IMG/VR virus record: IMGVR_UViG_2974716081_000001
Direction: 5' to 3' (one strand)
From: a virus
Lineage: Duplodnaviria > Heunggongvirae > Uroviricota > Caudoviricetes
Length of the DNA: 64,000 nt
Shown: piece by piece, positions 436 to 30,668 of the stretch
Position numbering within the stretch: position 1 is the stretch's first letter
How the letters are laid out: the number at the start of each line of letters is the position of its first letter
Position numbers and translations under genes: made by a program
Notes under the pieces: generated by a model
Databases searched by the model: none
What the model saw: only the letters and a program-made list of their open reading frames with translations
Told to the model about the DNA's origin: nothing

Positions 436-1467
436 ATGTCTAATTTACTGACCGTACACCAAAATTTGCCTGCATTACCGGTCGATGCAACAAGTGATGA
501 GGTTCGCAAGAACCTGATGGACATGTTCAGGGATCGCCAGGCGTTTTCTGAGCATACCTGGAAAATGCTTCTGTCCGTTTGCCGGTCGTGGGCGGCATGG
601 TGCAAGTTGAATAACCGGAAGTGGTTTCCCGCAGAACCTGAAGATGTTCGCGATTATCTTCTATATCTTCAGGCGCGCGGTCTGGCAGTGAAAACTATCC
701 AGCAACATTTGGGCCAGCTAAATATGCTTCATCGTCGGTCCGGGCTGCCACGACCAAGTGACAGCAATGCTGTTTCACTGGTCATGCGACGGATCCGAAA
801 AGAAAACGTTGATGCCGGTGAGCGTGCAAAACAGGCGCTGGCGTTCGAACGCACTGATTTCGACCAGGTTCGTTCACTCATGGAAAATAGCGATCGCTGC
901 CAGGATATACGTAATCTGGCATTTCTGGGGATTGCTTATAACACCCTGTTACGTATAGCCGAAATTTCTAGGATCAGAGTTAAAGATATCTCACGTACTG
1001 ACGGTGGGAGAATGTTAATCCATATTGGCAGAACGAAAACGCTGGTTAGCACCGCTGGTGTAGAGAAGGCACTTAGTCTGGGGGTAACTAAACTGGTTGA
1101 GCGATGGATTTCTGTCTCTGGTGTGGCTGATGATCCGAATAACTACTTGTTTTGCCGTGTCAGAAAAAATGGTGTTGCCGCGCCATCTGCCACCAGCCAG
1201 CTATCAACTCGCGCCCTGGAAGGGATTTTTGAAGCAACTCACCGATTGATTTACGGGGCTAAGGATGACTCTGACCAGAGGTACCTGGCCTGGTCTGGAC
1301 ACAGTGCCCGTGTCGGAGCCGCGCGAGATATGGCCCGCGCCGGAGTTTCAATACCGGAGATCATGCAAGCTGGTGGCTGGACCAACGTAAATATTGTCAT
1401 GAACTATATCCGTAATCTGGATAGTGAAACGGGGGCAATGGTGCGCCTGCTGGAAGATGGTGATTAG
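436..1467 (+). CDS. cre: Cre site-specific tyrosine recombinase
   Basis: 343-aa ORF MSNLLTVHQNLPALPVDATSDEVRKNLMDMFRDRQAFSEHTWKMLLSVCRSWAAWCKLNNRKWFPAEPEDVRDYLLYLQARGLAVKTIQQHLGQLNMLHRR matches Cre as I recall it; ATG start; adjacent to loxP. Confidence 0.98.
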   Translation: MSNLLTVHQNLPALPVDATSDEVRKNLMDMFRDRQAFSEHTWKMLLSVCRSWAAWCKLNNRKWFPAEPEDVRDYLLYLQARGLAVKTIQQHLGQLNMLHRRSGLPRPSDSNAVSLVMRRIRKENVDAGERAKQALAFERTDFDQVRSLMENSDRCQDIRNLAFLGIAYNTLLRIAEISRIRVKDISRTDGGRMLIHIGRTKTLVSTAGVEKALSLGVTKLVERWISVSGVADDPNNYLFCRVRKNGVAAPSATSQLSTRALEGIFEATHRLIYGAKDDSDQRYLAWSGHSARVGAARDMARAGVSIPEIMQAGGWTNVNIVMNYIRNLDSETGAMVRLLEDGD

Positions 1468-24771: not shown

Positions 24772-24788
24772 TATTGCTCTAATTAATT
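24772..24788 (+). promoter_or_regulatory. C1 operator upstream of ssb
   Basis: ATTGCTCTAATTAATTT, 15/17 match to consensus, 20 bp upstream of ssb. Confidence 0.55.
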
Positions 24789-24808
24789 TATTTTATTGGG
24801 TAAGAAAA

Positions 24809-25297
24809 GTGGCACAACGCGGTGTAAACAAAGTCATCCTGATTGGTACCCTGGGGCAAGACCCGGAGATCAGGTATATACCAAATGGCGGAACGGTCGG
24901 AAGACTAAGCATCGCAACAAATGAATCATGGCGCGACAAGCAAACGGGCCAACAGAAAGAGCAAACAGAATGGCATAGAGTCGTTTTGTTCGGGAAACTT
25001 GCTGAAATTGCGAGTGAGTATTTACGAAAAGGTTCTCAGGTCTACATCGAAGGGAAACTTAAAACCCGTAAGTGGACAGATGACGCCGGTGTAGAACGTT
25101 ACACGACGGAAATTATCGTCAGCCAGGGCGGCACCATGCAAATGATCGGCGCTCGCCGCGACGATTCACAATTCTCAAATGGCTGGGGGCAGTCAAACCA
25201 ACCTCAAAACCACCAGCAATACAGCGGTGGCAGTAAACCTCAGAGCAACGCCAATAGCGAACCTCCAATGGACTTTGAAGACGATATTCCATTTTGA
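24809..25297 (+). CDS. ssb: single-stranded DNA-binding protein
   Basis: 162 aa, OB-fold N-terminus, Gly/Gln-rich linker and acidic C-terminal tail DFEDDIPF typical of SSB. Confidence 0.95.
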
Positions 25298-25349
25298 GAG
25301 GGCTGAAAGTTGCTCGATTACTTAAAAATAACTTTACCTAATTGGTGTA

Positions 25350-25374
25350 AAAAAATGGGCGCAACAAAGCGCCC
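25350..25374 (-). terminator. intrinsic terminator for the leftward porin transcript
   Basis: GGGCGC-aacaaa-GCGCCC stem with a 7-nt A-run on the top strand (U-run on the porin transcript). Confidence 0.45.
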
Positions 25375-25530
25375 CAACAATAGAGTTTCAAATTAATAAA
25401 AAGGTAATAAATAACATGAAGTTAAATTGAGAAGAGGCAATTTTATTGCCTCTTCAAAGGTGGCATGAGGGTGCCACCTATATGCGGGCAGTGACATCAC
25501 TCCCTTCCCGCATATTCTTACCTACCAAAA

Positions 25531-26646
25531 TTAGAATTGGTAGGTCATACCAACAGCAACGATGTTGTCGGTTGCAACCTCAGATGTTTTGGTAAATTCA
25601 CTTTCATCAATCAGGTTGATCTTGTAGTCAACGAAAGCGGACATATTTTTGTTAAAGTAATAAGTCGCGCCCACGTCGATGTATTCAACCAGATCCTGGT
25701 TACCGAACGCACCAATATTTTCACCGCGAGAGTGTAGGTAAGCGATGGACGGACGCAGGCCGAAATCAAACTGGTATTGAGCAACGGCTTCAAAGTTTTT
25801 CGCCTTGTTCGCGATATGGTCATCACCGAAGACTGTCATATTCTGAGTTTCAGAATAAGTTGTAGCCAGGTAAATGTTGTTTGCATCATATTTCAGGCCC
25901 GTAGCCCATACTTCAGCAGTTTTACCAGAGGCATTCAGATTCAGAGGGGCTTTAGCATAGGATACCTGTCCATCAGTACGGTCAGATTTTGCATAAGTTG
26001 CGCCAATGCCAAATCCTTCATAATCATAAGTAGCTGACAGACCGAAGCCATCACCATTAGATTCAACTACGTCGCGGCCTTTCCAGTTGTTCACTTTTGC
26101 AGCACTATCATTTTTACCCTGATACTGCAAAGCAAAGTTCAGACCATCAACCAAGCCGAAGAAATCATTGTTACGATAGGTCGCGACGCCAGTAGCACGC
26201 TGGGTCATAAATACATCAGTCTGAGTCCAGGTATCTCCACCAAACTCCGGCAGCACGTCAGTCCAAGCGCCAACATCATACGCTACACCGTAGTTGCGAC
26301 CATAGTCGAGCGAACCATAATCGCCAAAGCGAAGCCCTGCAAACGCAAGACGAGTTTTATCTTTATCAGAACCTTCAGTTTCAGTACGGTTACCTTTAAA
26401 TTCGTACTCCCACTGACCAAAACCGGTTAACTGGTCATTAATCTGAGTTTCACCTTTGAAACCCATACGAGCATAAGTTTTATCCCCGTCATCACTAGCT
26501 GAAGAAGAGAAGTAATGCTCTGCATTAACTTTGCCGTACAGATCCAGTTTGTTACCGTCTTTGTTATAGATTTCTGCCGCTTGTGCAGACATTGCCATCA
26601 GGACTGATGCTGCAACCGCAGAAAGTGCCACTGTGATTTTTTTCAT
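25531..26646 (-). CDS. OmpC/OmpF-family general porin with signal peptide (phage-borne cargo)
   Basis: 371 aa; signal peptide [23 protein letters not shown]; motifs [44 protein letters not shown]-terminal YQF shared with enterobacterial porins. Confidence 0.85.
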
Positions 26647-26757
26647 TTTTTTGCCCTTTAGATTGAACTTTTCAGTAGAAAAGAGGTCACTGCGGACAAA
26701 TGTTTATCTTTTTTGGATTCGTGTTTCAAGTTTTGCAAATAAAAATCAAGGTATTTT

Positions 26758-26773
26758 TGTGATCAAAATCACA
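26758..26773. promoter_or_regulatory. CRP-type palindrome TGTGA-N6-TCACA about 110 bp upstream of the porin start
   Basis: perfect TGTGATCAAAATCACA inside a larger palindrome CAAGGT...ACCTTG (26748-26787). Confidence 0.4.
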
Positions 26774-27385
26774 AATAATAACCTTGAAAACCCAATGGAC
26801 TATTAGAAAAATCTCAATTCACAGAATAAAAATTGACAAAATAGAACAAAACACAATCAACAATAAGCACAAAAGACAAACAATTAAATTAGCACAAAAA
26901 TAATAACTGCAAAAATAGATAGTCTGTTAATTAATAGGGTTTTAATGGATGTGGATTTGAAATCTACTTAAAAAGTAGAGTCAAATTAATTACTGTCGAT
27001 TGGGTATTAAACTGAATCTATATTGTGAGAGTTAAAGACGATGTGTTTTAGTTATACATGTTATTCCCTAAAATGGAGTAGTCTCATCGAATTCTGATTA
27101 ATAACGAGCTAAGCCAATTCATTTTAGTATGTGTATATCTTTACCCTCTGAATATGCAATGACGAAGAGATATTAAACAATATGTAGCTTCAGGATTGAC
27201 TCTGGAAGAATTAAAAGATCGGCTAAAGTGTTCAATATGTGGTGAGCGAAACGCAAAAATTAAAATTTTTTGATCTAACATATTAGGCAATAGCTTGCTT
27301 CCATAACCTAAAGCAAGCCACTACGCGTTTACTTTAAGTACACAATTAACATATCAGAACAGATTATTTGTGCACTATCAGGGAG

Positions 27386-27691
27386 TTAATATACGATCTG
27401 GTCTACATGATCCCCAAAATCATCGTCGTCCTCATCGCCACCCTCTACTGCTGGCCAATCGACAAACCAGCCAGCGTAAAGATGCAGCGTTCGGAGAACA
27501 TCACTTGCGGGAGCATCAAGGGTGTTAACGAATCCCATATAGCTATTGGGATTTGCCCCAGCTATGGCTTCAGCGATCATGTCCTCGGTAATGTCACCGG
27601 AGATAATGCTTAAACGCCCGGAAACTTCTTCATTATCATCAAATTCGATAATGGCATCTCCGCCTAATGGCGCTGCGATTTTAATCTGCAT
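27386..27691 (-). CDS. acidic 101-aa protein downstream of ddrB (hypothetical)
   Basis: start overlaps the upstream stop; C-terminal EGGDEDDDDFGD acidic patch. Confidence 0.45.
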   Translation of the reverse strand: MQIKIAAPLGGDAIIEFDDNEEVSGRLSIISGDITEDMIAEAIAGANPNSYMGFVNTLDAPASDVLRTLHLYAGWFVDWPAVEGGDEDDDDFGDHVDQIVY

Positions 27692-30668
27692 TATTTAGCT
27701 CCTTTGCCACACCTAATAACAGTTCCAGCAATCCGTCACCATTCATCAGTGATGCGGCAGCGGCCTCTTTGTCATGATACAACTGAAGAGCCATAGAGAA
27801 TACTTCCGTTGCTGATGTTTTTGAAATAGTCGGTGCTTTCTGCCGAATTTTCCCGGAGTTACTCACTGAGGCTGGCGGGTATACCTTCGCCATATAAATA
27901 TTACTCAATCGAGATCTGAAGCACCATTCAGGCTTGCCACGCCCACCGATATTAACGAAAGATGGCTTATCCCCTTCAACATTGGCCTTCAGGAATGACC
28001 GGGCTTTCTCTAACAAACCAGGGTTACTGTACTCAAGATGATGACCCAGCTCGTGCCACAGTGCACTTGCATTTTCATCGTTCAAATTGACAGCAACAAC
28101 ACCATTAAGATTTGCATATGCCCTTCCCTGGTGGTGAACCACCTTTGATAAGGTCGAAATTTTACCGCCGGTCAGGCGATAAATATCAGCAAGTTCCTTG
28201 CGCAGGTCTATCCCACCATTCTGTCCAGCGCGGGCTTCTTCCACTTCTTCCGTGATAAAAGAGTCGGCCCACTCAAGAGCTTTTTCTTCAGATACGGATG
28301 AGTTTGCGATCGCACTGTTCATGGCAGATAACACTTTCTCGTGGACCGAACCCATACTTCGCTGATTCATTTGCCAGCGTGTCTGCGGGTTATATGAGAA
28401 TCGCTTAAGTAGTTGGTCAAGCTGCTCAAGTTCTTCTTCACTGACATACCTTTTAGCCTCACCAATAATGCCAGGGAGAATATTGCCGTTAGGATTAAAC
28501 GCTCGCGAAAGGAAGAGTTTCAGCGCCCCCATGCCCTCCGATGCTTCAATATCACCAATAACCCGGTTAACAATGGCCGCACTCTTCGGATTAGCATCCG
28601 CCAATGCTCTGGCTACAATTTGCAGGGACGATACGACCTCACGCTGCATATCCGTCCTGATCTCATCAATAAACTCTGGCGTTATGCCGTGCTCTTTAAG
28701 GATATCCCTGCCTTCCGCCGTTACCCCATCGATATCACCGACATGTTTATTAACCCGACTTTGCAATGCCTTAAATGCCTTCAGAATTCCACGGGCATCA
28801 TCCGCTTTACTAACGGCCTTCCTGAATGCTGGCAAGAAGTCTGAGTTAACCTCATTTTGTTGATCGGCCCACTGAATGGAGGCTTCTTTCATCTCGTCCA
28901 GAGTCAGATCACCCAACGCGGTATGGTCTGTGAATATGAGCGACAACCTCTGAACCATTTCTGCCAATGGTGATGCCGAATGCGCCGCGCTAAGGAATGC
29001 TTTCACCCTGGTTGGGCGAATGGAAAACCAGTCAATAGCTGGTGGCATATCTCCGTTTTTTATCGCCTGCGCTATCTCGTCAAAGCCATCGCGCCCAAGG
29101 GAGGATGCGTGATTTAACAAGCCGCGAAGTAACGAATTGCTGATACCGAATAATCGGCACCATTTTTTCACGTCGGCAACAGGCATTCGAACAAAATGCG
29201 CAAGCACTTGAACAAGCTGTTCATCCTGGGGATCTGTACGGGAAAGCAGCCTGATCAGATGAATAATGTCTTTGATGCCGGATGCCCGATGTAATAGCAA
29301 ACTGGTATATGGAGCAACACCGTTGTAACTACCGCCGGAAACGGACTCGAAAAGACCGCCGGATATCCCTTGCATGCCTTCGTTTTCCAGTTCCTGAGAC
29401 ACCTGGCGAAGGATATCCTGTAACGACACATCACCACCGCCAAACATATCCCCCAGCGCCTGGCACTGGTGCTGTAACTCATCATTGATACGTTGAGCCA
29501 TCAATTTAAAGGCGGTGGCCATACGCTTCGCGCTACGGTTATTCGCGACGATGAATAACGCGAGAGCTTTCACTTCCGGGGCTGTTTCGCTGAACATATC
29601 CCCCTGAGCAATAACATCGGTAATATGTTGGCCTGACTCCTTCGATTGCCTTACCAGGTCTACCGCATCTTTCAATGCCGCCAGCGCCTTTTTATCGAGA
29701 CTATCCGCTGTCTCAATACCATCAACAATAGTTGTCACAGCCTGCTTGTGCGCTTCACCTGATAAAGCCTGCATCTGGACAAAATCATTGGCTGCCGCAT
29801 TAAGCGCCGTCAGAACATTACGCATATCTGGATCAGGTTCTTCTGCAACCATCCTTACCAGGCGCGCATCCTTATATGCCTTGGCAAAGATCGCGTTTTG
29901 TATACGGTCTACAAGTTGCCGTGTTGGTCGCCCATCTTTCGTTACAAGGCCAGCAGCCTGTGTGGCACCAACTTGCGTCATGAATCCGCGGATAAACGCG
30001 TCATTACTGCGGCTAAGCAGATCTCCGCTTTCTGACGGGTTAAACAGCGCCATCATCGCCGAAGTTATGTTGTCGGCATCAACAAAAGCCTTTTCACTGG
30101 CTGCCATTTCCTGAAGATCAGAAATATTTGAGTCCTTGGCAAACTGAACGCGGTCAACCTTAGTTAACCGGCGGCGCACCAGTACCGGAGCCGCCATTGA
30201 TTCAACCTTTTCAGGTCGTATGCCGAATTCGGTCGCATGATCAATCAGGTACTCACGATACCGATCCGCATTGCCGTCCTGATAGGCTTTGATGATCCCC
30301 ATGGTCCGTCCATTACCTGACTCAACGGCATTGTCCTCACCAATTATCGGCGCTCCATGGCTGGATAAACCGGAATCGGTAAGCTGAGCAGGCCGCAAAT
30401 CCTTGGATATCTGGTTAACCTGAAGAAGGCTGGATGCGCGGGTCCGGTCGCGCGGCTGAAGTTCCTGGGGATAGTCCGGATTAATTTTCCCGTCCAGAGT
30501 ATTGGATACCAAAAGAGCTGAGGCATCGACGATATCAAACGCTGTTTTTACCTCGTCTCCCTTCGCTGTCACCACATACGAAACCCGCCCGAAATCGGGC
30601 AGGTTTTTTAGCAGCTCGATCAGCGTTTCTATGCTGGTGGCCATTACCACCTGATCGCTTAAGCTCAT
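27681..30668 (-). CDS. ddrB: DdrB-like 995-aa protein of the darA operon
   Basis: large ORF third in line after darA and ddrA on the same strand; assigned by operon position. Confidence 0.7.
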   Translation of the reverse strand: MSLSDQVVMATSIETLIELLKNLPDFGRVSYVVTAKGDEVKTAFDIVDASALLVSNTLDGKINPDYPQELQPRDRTRASSLLQVNQISKDLRPAQLTDSGLSSHGAPIIGEDNAVESGNGRTMGIIKAYQDGNADRYREYLIDHATEFGIRPEKVESMAAPVLVRRRLTKVDRVQFAKDSNISDLQEMAASEKAFVDADNITSAMMALFNPSESGDLLSRSNDAFIRGFMTQVGATQAAGLVTKDGRPTRQLVDRIQNAIFAKAYKDARLVRMVAEEPDPDMRNVLTALNAAANDFVQMQALSGEAHKQAVTTIVDGIETADSLDKKALAALKDAVDLVRQSKESGQHITDVIAQGDMFSETAPEVKALALFIVANNRSAKRMATAFKLMAQRINDELQHQCQALGDMFGGGDVSLQDILRQVSQELENEGMQGISGGLFESVSGGSYNGVAPYTSLLLHRASGIKDIIHLIRLLSRTDPQDEQLVQVLAHFVRMPVADVKKWCRLFGISNSLLRGLLNHASSLGRDGFDEIAQAIKNGDMPPAIDWFSIRPTRVKAFLSAAHSASPLAEMVQRLSLIFTDHTALGDLTLDEMKEASIQWADQQNEVNSDFLPAFRKAVSKADDARGILKAFKALQSRVNKHVGDIDGVTAEGRDILKEHGITPEFIDEIRTDMQREVVSSLQIVARALADANPKSAAIVNRVIGDIEASEGMGALKLFLSRAFNPNGNILPGIIGEAKRYVSEEELEQLDQLLKRFSYNPQTRWQMNQRSMGSVHEKVLSAMNSAIANSSVSEEKALEWADSFITEEVEEARAGQNGGIDLRKELADIYRLTGGKISTLSKVVHHQGRAYANLNGVVAVNLNDENASALWHELGHHLEYSNPGLLEKARSFLKANVEGDKPSFVNIGGRGKPEWCFRSRLSNIYMAKVYPPASVSNSGKIRQKAPTISKTSATEVFSMALQLYHDKEAAAASLMNGDGLLELLLGVAKELNNAD

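Follow-up and report, generated by a model that had tools for sequence, protein, structure and literature searches.

A 64-kb stretch of a P1/P7-type phage-plasmid (IMG/VR record IMGVR_UViG_2974716081_000001; all 64,000 nucleotides are referred to below as the window) carries between ssb and hxr a slot of 2088 bp (25298-27385) whose sole long open reading frame (ORF) is a porin gene (25531-26646, minus strand). We consider it probable that positions 25349-26806 form a self-contained lysogenic-conversion cassette, a porin-replacement module in a variable slot of a P7-like phage-plasmid. A further proposal is made tentatively, and we hold it at somewhat less than even confidence: one 32-nt stretch of the 3' untranslated region (UTR) would be a dual antisense against the Shine-Dalgarno (SD) and start regions of ompF and ompC, its anti-ompF part MicF-like, and about a fifth to a quarter of the P1-like phage-plasmids, among which resistance plasmids are numerous, would be swapping the major host porins for their own. 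Phage porins of the Lc/NmpC kind are known already, as are the catabolite control of their genes and the carriage of one such gene by P7-like plasmids, and the gene itself is ordinary; added here is the ipeX-like tail with an explicit, testable predicted pairing to ompF and ompC.

Results

The 3'UTR of the porin gene, about 182 nt long with its terminator included (feature positions are collected in Table 1), is by sequence and predicted fold a structured homologue of ipeX, which an earlier reading of the slot from its letters and ORFs alone (the sequence-only reading) had missed. It folds as three strong hairpins and the terminator (-66.9 kcal/mol, z = -6.0), aligns with the lc/nmpC tail with the hairpins in the same order and 10 pairs compensated, and is matched by a profile of the lc/nmpC 3'UTR (nhmmer) at E = 3e-40. 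This profile matches phage-type porin loci only (23 loci and a P1 remnant, including DLP12 of Escherichia coli K-12 beyond an IS5) and none of 65 chromosomal porin loci; chromosomal ompD-type genes end in no more than a short terminator, some 45 nt past the stop codon. Lambdoid tails measure about 165-170 nt, which fits the 167 nt listed for ipeX of DLP12. In the DLP12 prophage of E. coli K-12 BW25113 (locus L006, 2564-2746) an ipeX-type tail is intact beyond the IS5 that truncates nmpC, beside quuD. The loop of hairpin 2 reads CCCUCA in 9 of 10 aligned homologues (CCCUUA in E. albertii) and its stem varies by compensation; in RNAs of the ipeX type this loop may be where a protein or another RNA makes contact.

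Between the window and phage JL22 the coding sequence (CDS) has a synonymous divergence (dS) of 0.23, whereas the 181-nt 3'UTR is identical and two changes separate the promoter regions (160 nt), a contrast that indicates that the untranslated parts are under strong constraint or else that recombination has made the gene a mosaic. Synonymous sites are less conserved than promoter, CRP site and 3'UTR alike. A blastn search of phages with the 3'UTR alone returned only two P1-like phages, and the lambdoid homology needed alignment and profile search. Rfam searches of the slot and the lambdoid homologues at permissive thresholds gave no ipeX or MicF family match, and no ipeX family exists in Rfam. 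A GcvB (RF00022) candidate at 25349-25535 (minus strand; 30.5 bits against a gathering threshold of 42, E = 3.5e-4 on 3.1 kb) was rejected as a chance or architectural resemblance, since no GU-rich R1 region is found in it and GcvB matches none of the ipeX homologues of lambdoid origin.

The predicted seed lies between hairpin 3 and the terminator, and its first 26 nt are invariant in 14 of 14 P7-type copies examined. Duplex folding of the whole 3'UTR against 180-nt targets pairs everything and was uninformative, and the prediction was redone with the single-stranded segment, using ompF, ompC and micF sequences from NC_000913.3 and two sets of controls, mononucleotide shuffles (n = 300) and 24,162 natural 90-nt windows from enterobacterial loci free of the cassette. 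The seed is predicted to pair with ompF from -15 to +9 (-23.4 kcal/mol), where a perfect core UUAUUUAUUACC, identical to MicF nt 17-28, stands opposite GGUAAUAAAUAA, and with ompC from -15 to +12 (-20.7 kcal/mol), where a perfect core UUCAUGUUAUU stands opposite AAUAACAUGAA, which spans the AUG. The anti-ompF 12-mer occupies 25403-25414 and the anti-ompC 11-mer 25410-25420. No shuffle reached the seed energy for either target (0/300 each). Among the natural windows, none reached the ompF energy and 25 reached that of ompC, 18 of which are starts of porin genes from other genera, about 60% identical to the query, which are taken to be OmpC orthologues. The positive control, MicF against ompF, gave z = -4.7, MicF against ompC behaved as a negative control, and the control duplex of the seed with the cassette's own start region gave no signal. 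The ipeX stretch of phage PA-2 (locus L088, 2587-2760) was computed to pair with K-12 ompC from -32 to -2 at -26.7 kcal/mol and only weakly with ompF; all of its top 15 among the 24,162 background windows come from 5' regions of presumably OmpC-type porin genes, with about 60% identity to the query.

The porin itself was described by the sequence-only reading as a full-length phage-borne protein with signal peptide between ssb and the dar operon, and the 371-aa ORF with ssb and hxr/ddrB on its flanks bears this out. Its 23-residue signal peptide (MKK...AQA, followed by AEIYNK) is of the same length as the sig_peptide annotated for PA-2 lc. Pfam Porin_1 matches residues 29-371 with 494 bits and the NCBIfam OmpC-subfamily model is passed (531 bits, cut-off 484), whereas the equivalog cut-offs are failed for PhoE (497 against 599) and OmpF (448 against 583). 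Matches in the PDB number 51 sequences, the best being Omp36 (E = 2e-136, residues 24-371), among solved 16-stranded trimeric porins, and the porin hallmarks are present: a cleavable-type signal peptide, a PEFGG motif in loop 3 and an aromatic C-terminal end (YQF). By profile and structure match the gene product is a general bacterial porin, with pore formation predicted. Identity is 80-82% to NmpC-type genes of lambdoid prophages, 79% (79.2%) to Lc of PA-2, 69-74% to chromosomal OmpD-type genes of Salmonella, Citrobacter and Enterobacter, and about 60% to OmpC/OmpF/PhoE-type genes, so that on sequence the porin is a member of the Lc/NmpC/OmpD clade and not OmpC proper. The earlier label of OmpC-family agrees with the subfamily model but is too loose, and the likeness to Lc that was also claimed extends to the promoter region and the 3'UTR. 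The Rfam scan of the slot detected no micF gene beside the porin. One hit taken for ompC (H63) was rejected, being a frameshifted porin pseudogene beside hchA.

More diverged pairs of P7-type alleles have ratios of nonsynonymous to synonymous divergence (dN/dS) of 0.08-0.17, indicating purifying selection, and their amino-acid variation clusters in a few short stretches, which we take to be external loops L4, L5 and L8; relative to Lc there is a 7-residue insertion at predicted L4. As judged from these alleles, this appears to be a working gene with a diversifying surface.

About 150 bp upstream of the ATG align with the upstream region of lc/nmpC, including the TGTGA-N6-TCACA palindrome from which catabolite control had been proposed. 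The palindrome (TGTGATCAAAATCACA) is the only perfect one in the window, and the flanking T and A also match, so that a perfect consensus core is extended to TGTGAT-N4-ATCACA. Shuffles give 0.13 expected occurrences, with at least one in 12 of 100; the palindrome alone is only modestly unlikely, and its weight rests on position and conservation. In the GenBank record of PA-2 lc (J02580; CRP misc_binding 1363..1383, ATG at 1492) the annotated site ATAGAGATCTACTTCACAAAT shares exact alignment columns with TTTGTGATTTTGATCACAAA of the window, and in both the centre lies 119-119.5 nt upstream of the ATG (119.5 in the window). The core is unchanged in eight P7-type variants, and 9 of 10 OmpD-type loci match the core at 7-8 of its 10 positions, the TCACA half being perfect, at a distance of 158-169 nt upstream of the ATG. 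By alignment the palindrome and the annotated CRP site of PA-2 lc are homologous in position. Readings of it as an FNR site or as part of a divergent promoter were rejected on spacing, by inspection.

The -35 hexamer of the predicted sigma-70 promoter is invariant in the lc/nmpC/P7-type family. From it we infer a transcription start at about 26694, which would place the CRP centre at -71.5, a class I position; of the class I centres considered (-61.5, -71.5, -82.5 or -92.5), -71.5 holds only if the start is at about 26694. Catabolite control is a well-founded expectation, CRP dependence being predicted from the site, and since it is inherited from the Lc/NmpC/OmpD family it is not a new feature. 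In the predicted 5'UTR the motif GCAGUGAC is found in 6 of 7 aligned lc/nmpC/P7-type sequences, with GCAGUGGC in E. albertii. We take GCAGUGAC to be a near-complement of the 5' end of RybB (GCCACUGC). The nmpC mRNA has been reported as a RybB target, and the cassette may in addition be linked to the sigma-E response of the host.

Upstream of the CRP site, homology to lc/nmpC and to a copy in the chromosome of E. coli ECSD228 extends for only about 35 bp. The ECSD228 cassette, which is flanked by insertion sequences (IS), is homologous to the window only from about 25350 to about 26806, and the unit is therefore terminator-to-promoter; the cassette appears to move as a unit. Cassettes from terminator to CRP site were also seen outside P1-like elements, in the ECSD228 chromosome, the IncF plasmid pKTa005_3 and pECTOK-001_2, adjoined by IS3, ISKpn26, IS26 or IS5. 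The earlier suggestion that the slot is an insertion hotspot agrees with its variable content: P1 has isaA-IS1-isaB there, homology of other plasmids to the window breaks off between about 26763 and about 26845 with IS1, IS26 or IS5 annotated beside the cassette, and ISVsa5 and IS3 interrupt the slot in further plasmid records.

In P1 (NC_005856; locus L002, 3510-3602 and 4372-4391) the stretch between isaA and IS1 still contains a terminator and a seed block like those of the cassette. This scar corresponds to window positions 25330-25428 and 27139-27162 joined directly; its terminator hairpin has compensatory changes and its seed has degenerated. The IS1 at the junction is a simple insertion and has duplicated a 9-bp target (TGCCCTCTG). 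Compared with the window, P1 is missing about 1.7 kb (about 25429-27136), comprising hairpins 1-3, porin, promoter and spacer, and the window is missing the isaB promoter and its first approximately 165 codons. Given this scar, laboratory P1 looks like a deletion derivative of a porin-bearing ancestor. In Escherichia fergusonii pTB91P2 (NZ_CP070875; locus L101, 512-2871) the porin cassette is followed by a full isaB, encoding a protein 95.5% identical in amino acids to P1 IsaB, and a 3'-end fragment of isaA, an arrangement that looks like the older, ancestral slot. Of the ssb-to-ddrB comparison with P1 and P7 that the sequence-only reading had in view, the P1 half gave the cassette-deletion scar with isaA-IS1-isaB, and identity to P7 rests on the literature.

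A search with the 2088-bp slot matched phages JL22 and phi456 at 95-100% identity, 130 plasmid records in PLSDB (99 of them over at least 80% of its length) and, over at least 80% of its length, 91 of 5426 complete E. coli genomes. The slot-bearing PLSDB records inspected are complete circular plasmids, and in JL22 and all plasmids inspected the porin is flanked by the same neighbours, ssb and hxr. With the approximately 500 PLSDB plasmids that have a P1-type ssb as denominator, the cassette is present in about 100-125, and therefore in roughly a fifth to a quarter of P1-like plasmids. The porin clade occurs in 40 phage records, 2 of them P1-like and most others lambdoid, and the nearest chromosomal relatives of the porin are 78-82% identical and are themselves prophage-borne or IS-flanked.

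A scan of the window with the P1 C1 operator consensus (at most 3 mismatches) found five matches, at 1963, 20923, 24773, 50853 and 52527, with 0.29 expected; as sequence matches these are a confirmation of a P1-type immunity network in the window. The operator nearest to the porin is that of ssb (Ossb, 24773-24789), outside the slot. The same scan found none within the slot, which fits porin expression in the prophage state.

Table 1. Features of the porin slot and its flanks in the window (strand "." where neither strand is assigned).
Feature	Position	Strand	Basis
ssb, left flank of slot	24809..25297	+	ORF list, comparison with JL22 and P1
ipeX-like 3'UTR, ~182 nt, stop codon to terminator end	25349..25530	-	fold z, profile, compensatory changes
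Rho-independent terminator, GGGCGC-UUUGUU-GCGCCC then U7	25349..25374	-	terminator scan, folding
Predicted seed 5'-AAUUUAACUUCAUGUUAUUUAUUACCUUUUUA-3'	25397..25428	-	duplex prediction
3'UTR hairpin 3	25431..25455	-	alignment, folding
3'UTR hairpin 2	25459..25478	-	alignment
3'UTR hairpin 1	25480..25515	-	alignment, folding
Porin CDS, 371 aa, ATG start, Lc/NmpC/OmpD clade	25531..26646	-	ORF, profiles, alignments
Signal peptide coding part	26578..26646	-	translation
Predicted 5'UTR, ~48 nt; SD AAAGGG 26654-26659, conserved GCAGUGAC 26686-26693	26647..26694	-	alignment; start inferred
Predicted sigma-70 promoter; -35 TTGAAA 26724-26729, 17-nt spacer, weak -10 TAAACA 26701-26706	26701..26729	-	inference
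CRP site; core TGTGAT-N4-ATCACA at 26758-26773	26755..26776	.	palindrome, alignment with lc
AT-rich spacer, 24-32% GC, specific to P7-type slot	26807..27136	.	composition, folding, conservation
Homologue of IS1-flanking P1 sequence, with counterpart of the 9-bp IS1 target (TGCCCTCTG in P1)	27139..27162	+	comparison with P1
isaB remnant, last 36 codons and stop codon	27163..27273	+	comparison with P1
hxr, last gene of dar operon, right flank of slot	27386..27691	-	ORF list, comparison with JL22 and P1
ddrB	27681..30668	-	ORF list, comparison with JL22 and P1

Comparison with known systems

The closest known systems are lc of PA-2 and nmpC of DLP12/qsr', which share with the window porin 79-82% protein identity, a homologous promoter, a CRP site equally far from the ATG, a tail of three hairpins and terminator, and the arrangement of an anti-porin RNA, predicted in the window, within a phage porin transcript. 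They differ in location, lying between Q and the lysis genes (as in the lambdoid copies inspected, where the lysis gene is S) whereas the window porin lies between ssb and the dar operon of a P1/P7-type phage-plasmid. Besides the insertion at predicted L4, the window porin differs from Lc in a second variable stretch (predicted L5). Its tail is about 182 nt against 167 nt for ipeX and includes a 19-nt insertion, and the seed register also differs, PA-2 ipeX being best at ompC -32 to -2 and the P7-type seed at ompF -15 to +9 and ompC -15 to +12.

Phage P7 has a porin gene annotated nmpC and P7-like plasmids annotate ompD or ompC; the gene order listed for a P7-like plasmid with mcr-1 is hxr-ompD-ssb. 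No difference between the window porin and P7 nmpC is established, their identity resting on these published descriptions. Literature searches found no functional or regulatory study of a P1/P7-type porin copy.

Salmonella OmpD belongs to the same clade (74% identity to the S. arizonae gene) and has an upstream CRP-like site with a conserved TCACA half, as in the window. It differs in having another signal peptide and a short terminator with no ipeX-like tail, and from the first base of the site to the ATG the distance is 158-169 nt in OmpD-type genes against 127 nt in the window. Activation of ompD by cAMP-CRP has reportedly been observed.

MicF nt 11-28 are contained exactly in the window seed apart from a 5-nt insertion (CAUGU), and the ompF target predicted for the seed is that of MicF, GGUAAUAAAUAA, between SD and AUG. 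MicF is a free-standing gene divergent from ompC, whereas the window seed is in the tail of a porin mRNA; the window tail has no MicF match in Rfam and no similarity to MicF outside the seed, and the shared stretch may be convergent.

Discussion

As a porin-replacement module, the cassette would work as follows. The porin would be transcribed in the plasmid-prophage state from its weak sigma-70 promoter, with cAMP-CRP activating from about -71.5, and would insert into the outer membrane. The 3'UTR, within the mRNA or after processing, would pair through 25397-25428 with the translation-initiation regions of ompF and ompC and lower their synthesis. The net result would be that a phage porin, differing in its surface loops, takes the place of the major host porins, a change that would remove the receptors of OmpC/OmpF-dependent phages and colicins and change permeability. 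The steps past an intact, conserved gene and its signals are those that we infer. PA-2 adsorbs to OmpC, and PA-2 lysogens make Lc and lose OmpC, so that PA-2 is excluded. P1 adsorbs to lipopolysaccharide, and the benefit here would therefore be protection from other OmpC/OmpF-dependent phages and colicins, together with altered permeability.

Several points weigh against this model. The start of transcription, its dependence on CRP and the 3' end are predictions, and the promoter, whose -10 hexamer is poor, was not called by a simple scan. Both the seed and its targets are rich in A+T, the 3'UTR is predicted to hold part of the seed in internal pairs (mean unpaired probability 0.53), and papers state that ipeX has no complementarity to ompC. 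The identity of 3'UTRs between alleles with differing CDS could reflect recombination and not constraint. Expression of nmpC is reported to be absent in many E. coli strains, K-12 included, owing to an insertion element. Copies of the cassette are often IS-interrupted and P1 has lost it; any selective advantage is therefore conditional at best. The complementarity computed here between PA-2 ipeX and ompC, a computational result only, is at odds with the literature, and on that discrepancy the long-unexplained mechanism of ipeX might be ordinary base pairing.

The internal pairing of the seed and the published statements on ipeX also favour a rival explanation, in which the gene is a plain accessory porin that adds a pore for permeability or nutrients and the 3'UTR is only a terminator and mRNA stabiliser. 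The gene is intact and under purifying selection, and structured 3'UTRs can merely stabilise mRNA. However, chromosomal OmpD-type genes suffice with their short terminator, the long tail is confined to phage-borne copies, the complementarity to the ompF and ompC starts lies above every shuffle and nearly all natural background windows, and ipeX, the lc/nmpC tail, is reported to repress OmpC and OmpF. We regard an accessory pore with a passive tail as unlikely, though it deserves serious consideration.

Porin replacement also competes with the view that the cassette is a silent passenger being lost, unexpressed in lysogens (for example through H-NS on AT-rich DNA), hitch-hiking, and eroded by IS elements and deletions. 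The low G+C of the upstream DNA, the IS elements in or beside the cassette in several plasmids (with IS10 inside the gene in pSvP1), the clean 1.7-kb cassette deletion in P1 and the lack of nmpC expression in many E. coli strains would all suit such decay. Against it stand a dN/dS of about 0.1 across alleles with dS up to 0.23, conservation of promoter, CRP site and 3'UTR beyond that of synonymous sites, and retention of the cassette in the fraction of P1-like plasmids given above, and we find it improbable.

The sequence-only reading looked to the upstream DNA, about 730 bp taken as a long leader, for small RNAs or silenced promoters. As it had said, 26647-27385 is AT-rich (24-35% GC per 100 bp) and has no ORF above 57 aa; contrary to its account as non-coding throughout, 27163-27273 is the end of isaB, and the supposed leader resolves into the promoter with a predicted 5'UTR of some 48 nt, a spacer with little conservation and no fold signal, and the isaB remnant. 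An independent small RNA gene or regulatory promoters in the AT-rich 26807-27385 would find a point in their favour in one promoter-like site at 26784-26812 (plus strand), but such sites number 4 against 5.9 expected from shuffles, a scan of the slot at permissive thresholds gave no Rfam match in the upstream DNA, fold z-scores of the spacer on the two strands (-0.5 and 0.05) are at chance level, repeats in it are only short two-copy ones, as expected by chance, and a terminator scan of it likewise gave no more than chance. Positions 26807-27136 are moreover the least conserved part of the stretch from porin to isaB remnant (87-99.7% identity), and part of the interval is pseudogene remnant; we consider a regulatory element there very improbable and the earlier suggestion unsupported.

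That the porin is host chromosomal DNA joined by mis-assembly, or a recently captured host ompC, can be set aside with near certainty even though the NCBI annotation pipeline calls the gene ompC, because the slot is matched over at least 80% of its length in 99 plasmid records, 91 E. coli genomes and two isolated phages, both of which have it between ssb and hxr, the ssb and hxr junctions are the same in JL22 and in all plasmids inspected, and the closest chromosomal genes are only 78-82% identical and prophage-borne or IS-flanked; the element truly includes the porin, as the sequence-only reading had assumed.

The divergent P7-type copy offers a comparison for locating the working parts of ipeX, for which the near-invariant hairpin-2 loop CCCUCA and the block UGUUAU-N-UAUUACC are candidates, and laboratory P1 appears in this comparison as a deletion derivative without the porin module. 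If the tail does silence OmpF and OmpC through pairing, a large share of the P1-like phage-plasmids that circulate in E. coli of human, livestock and food origin would alter the outer membrane of the cells that carry them, which would bear on antibiotic entry and on how sensitive these cells are to porin-dependent phages and colicins.

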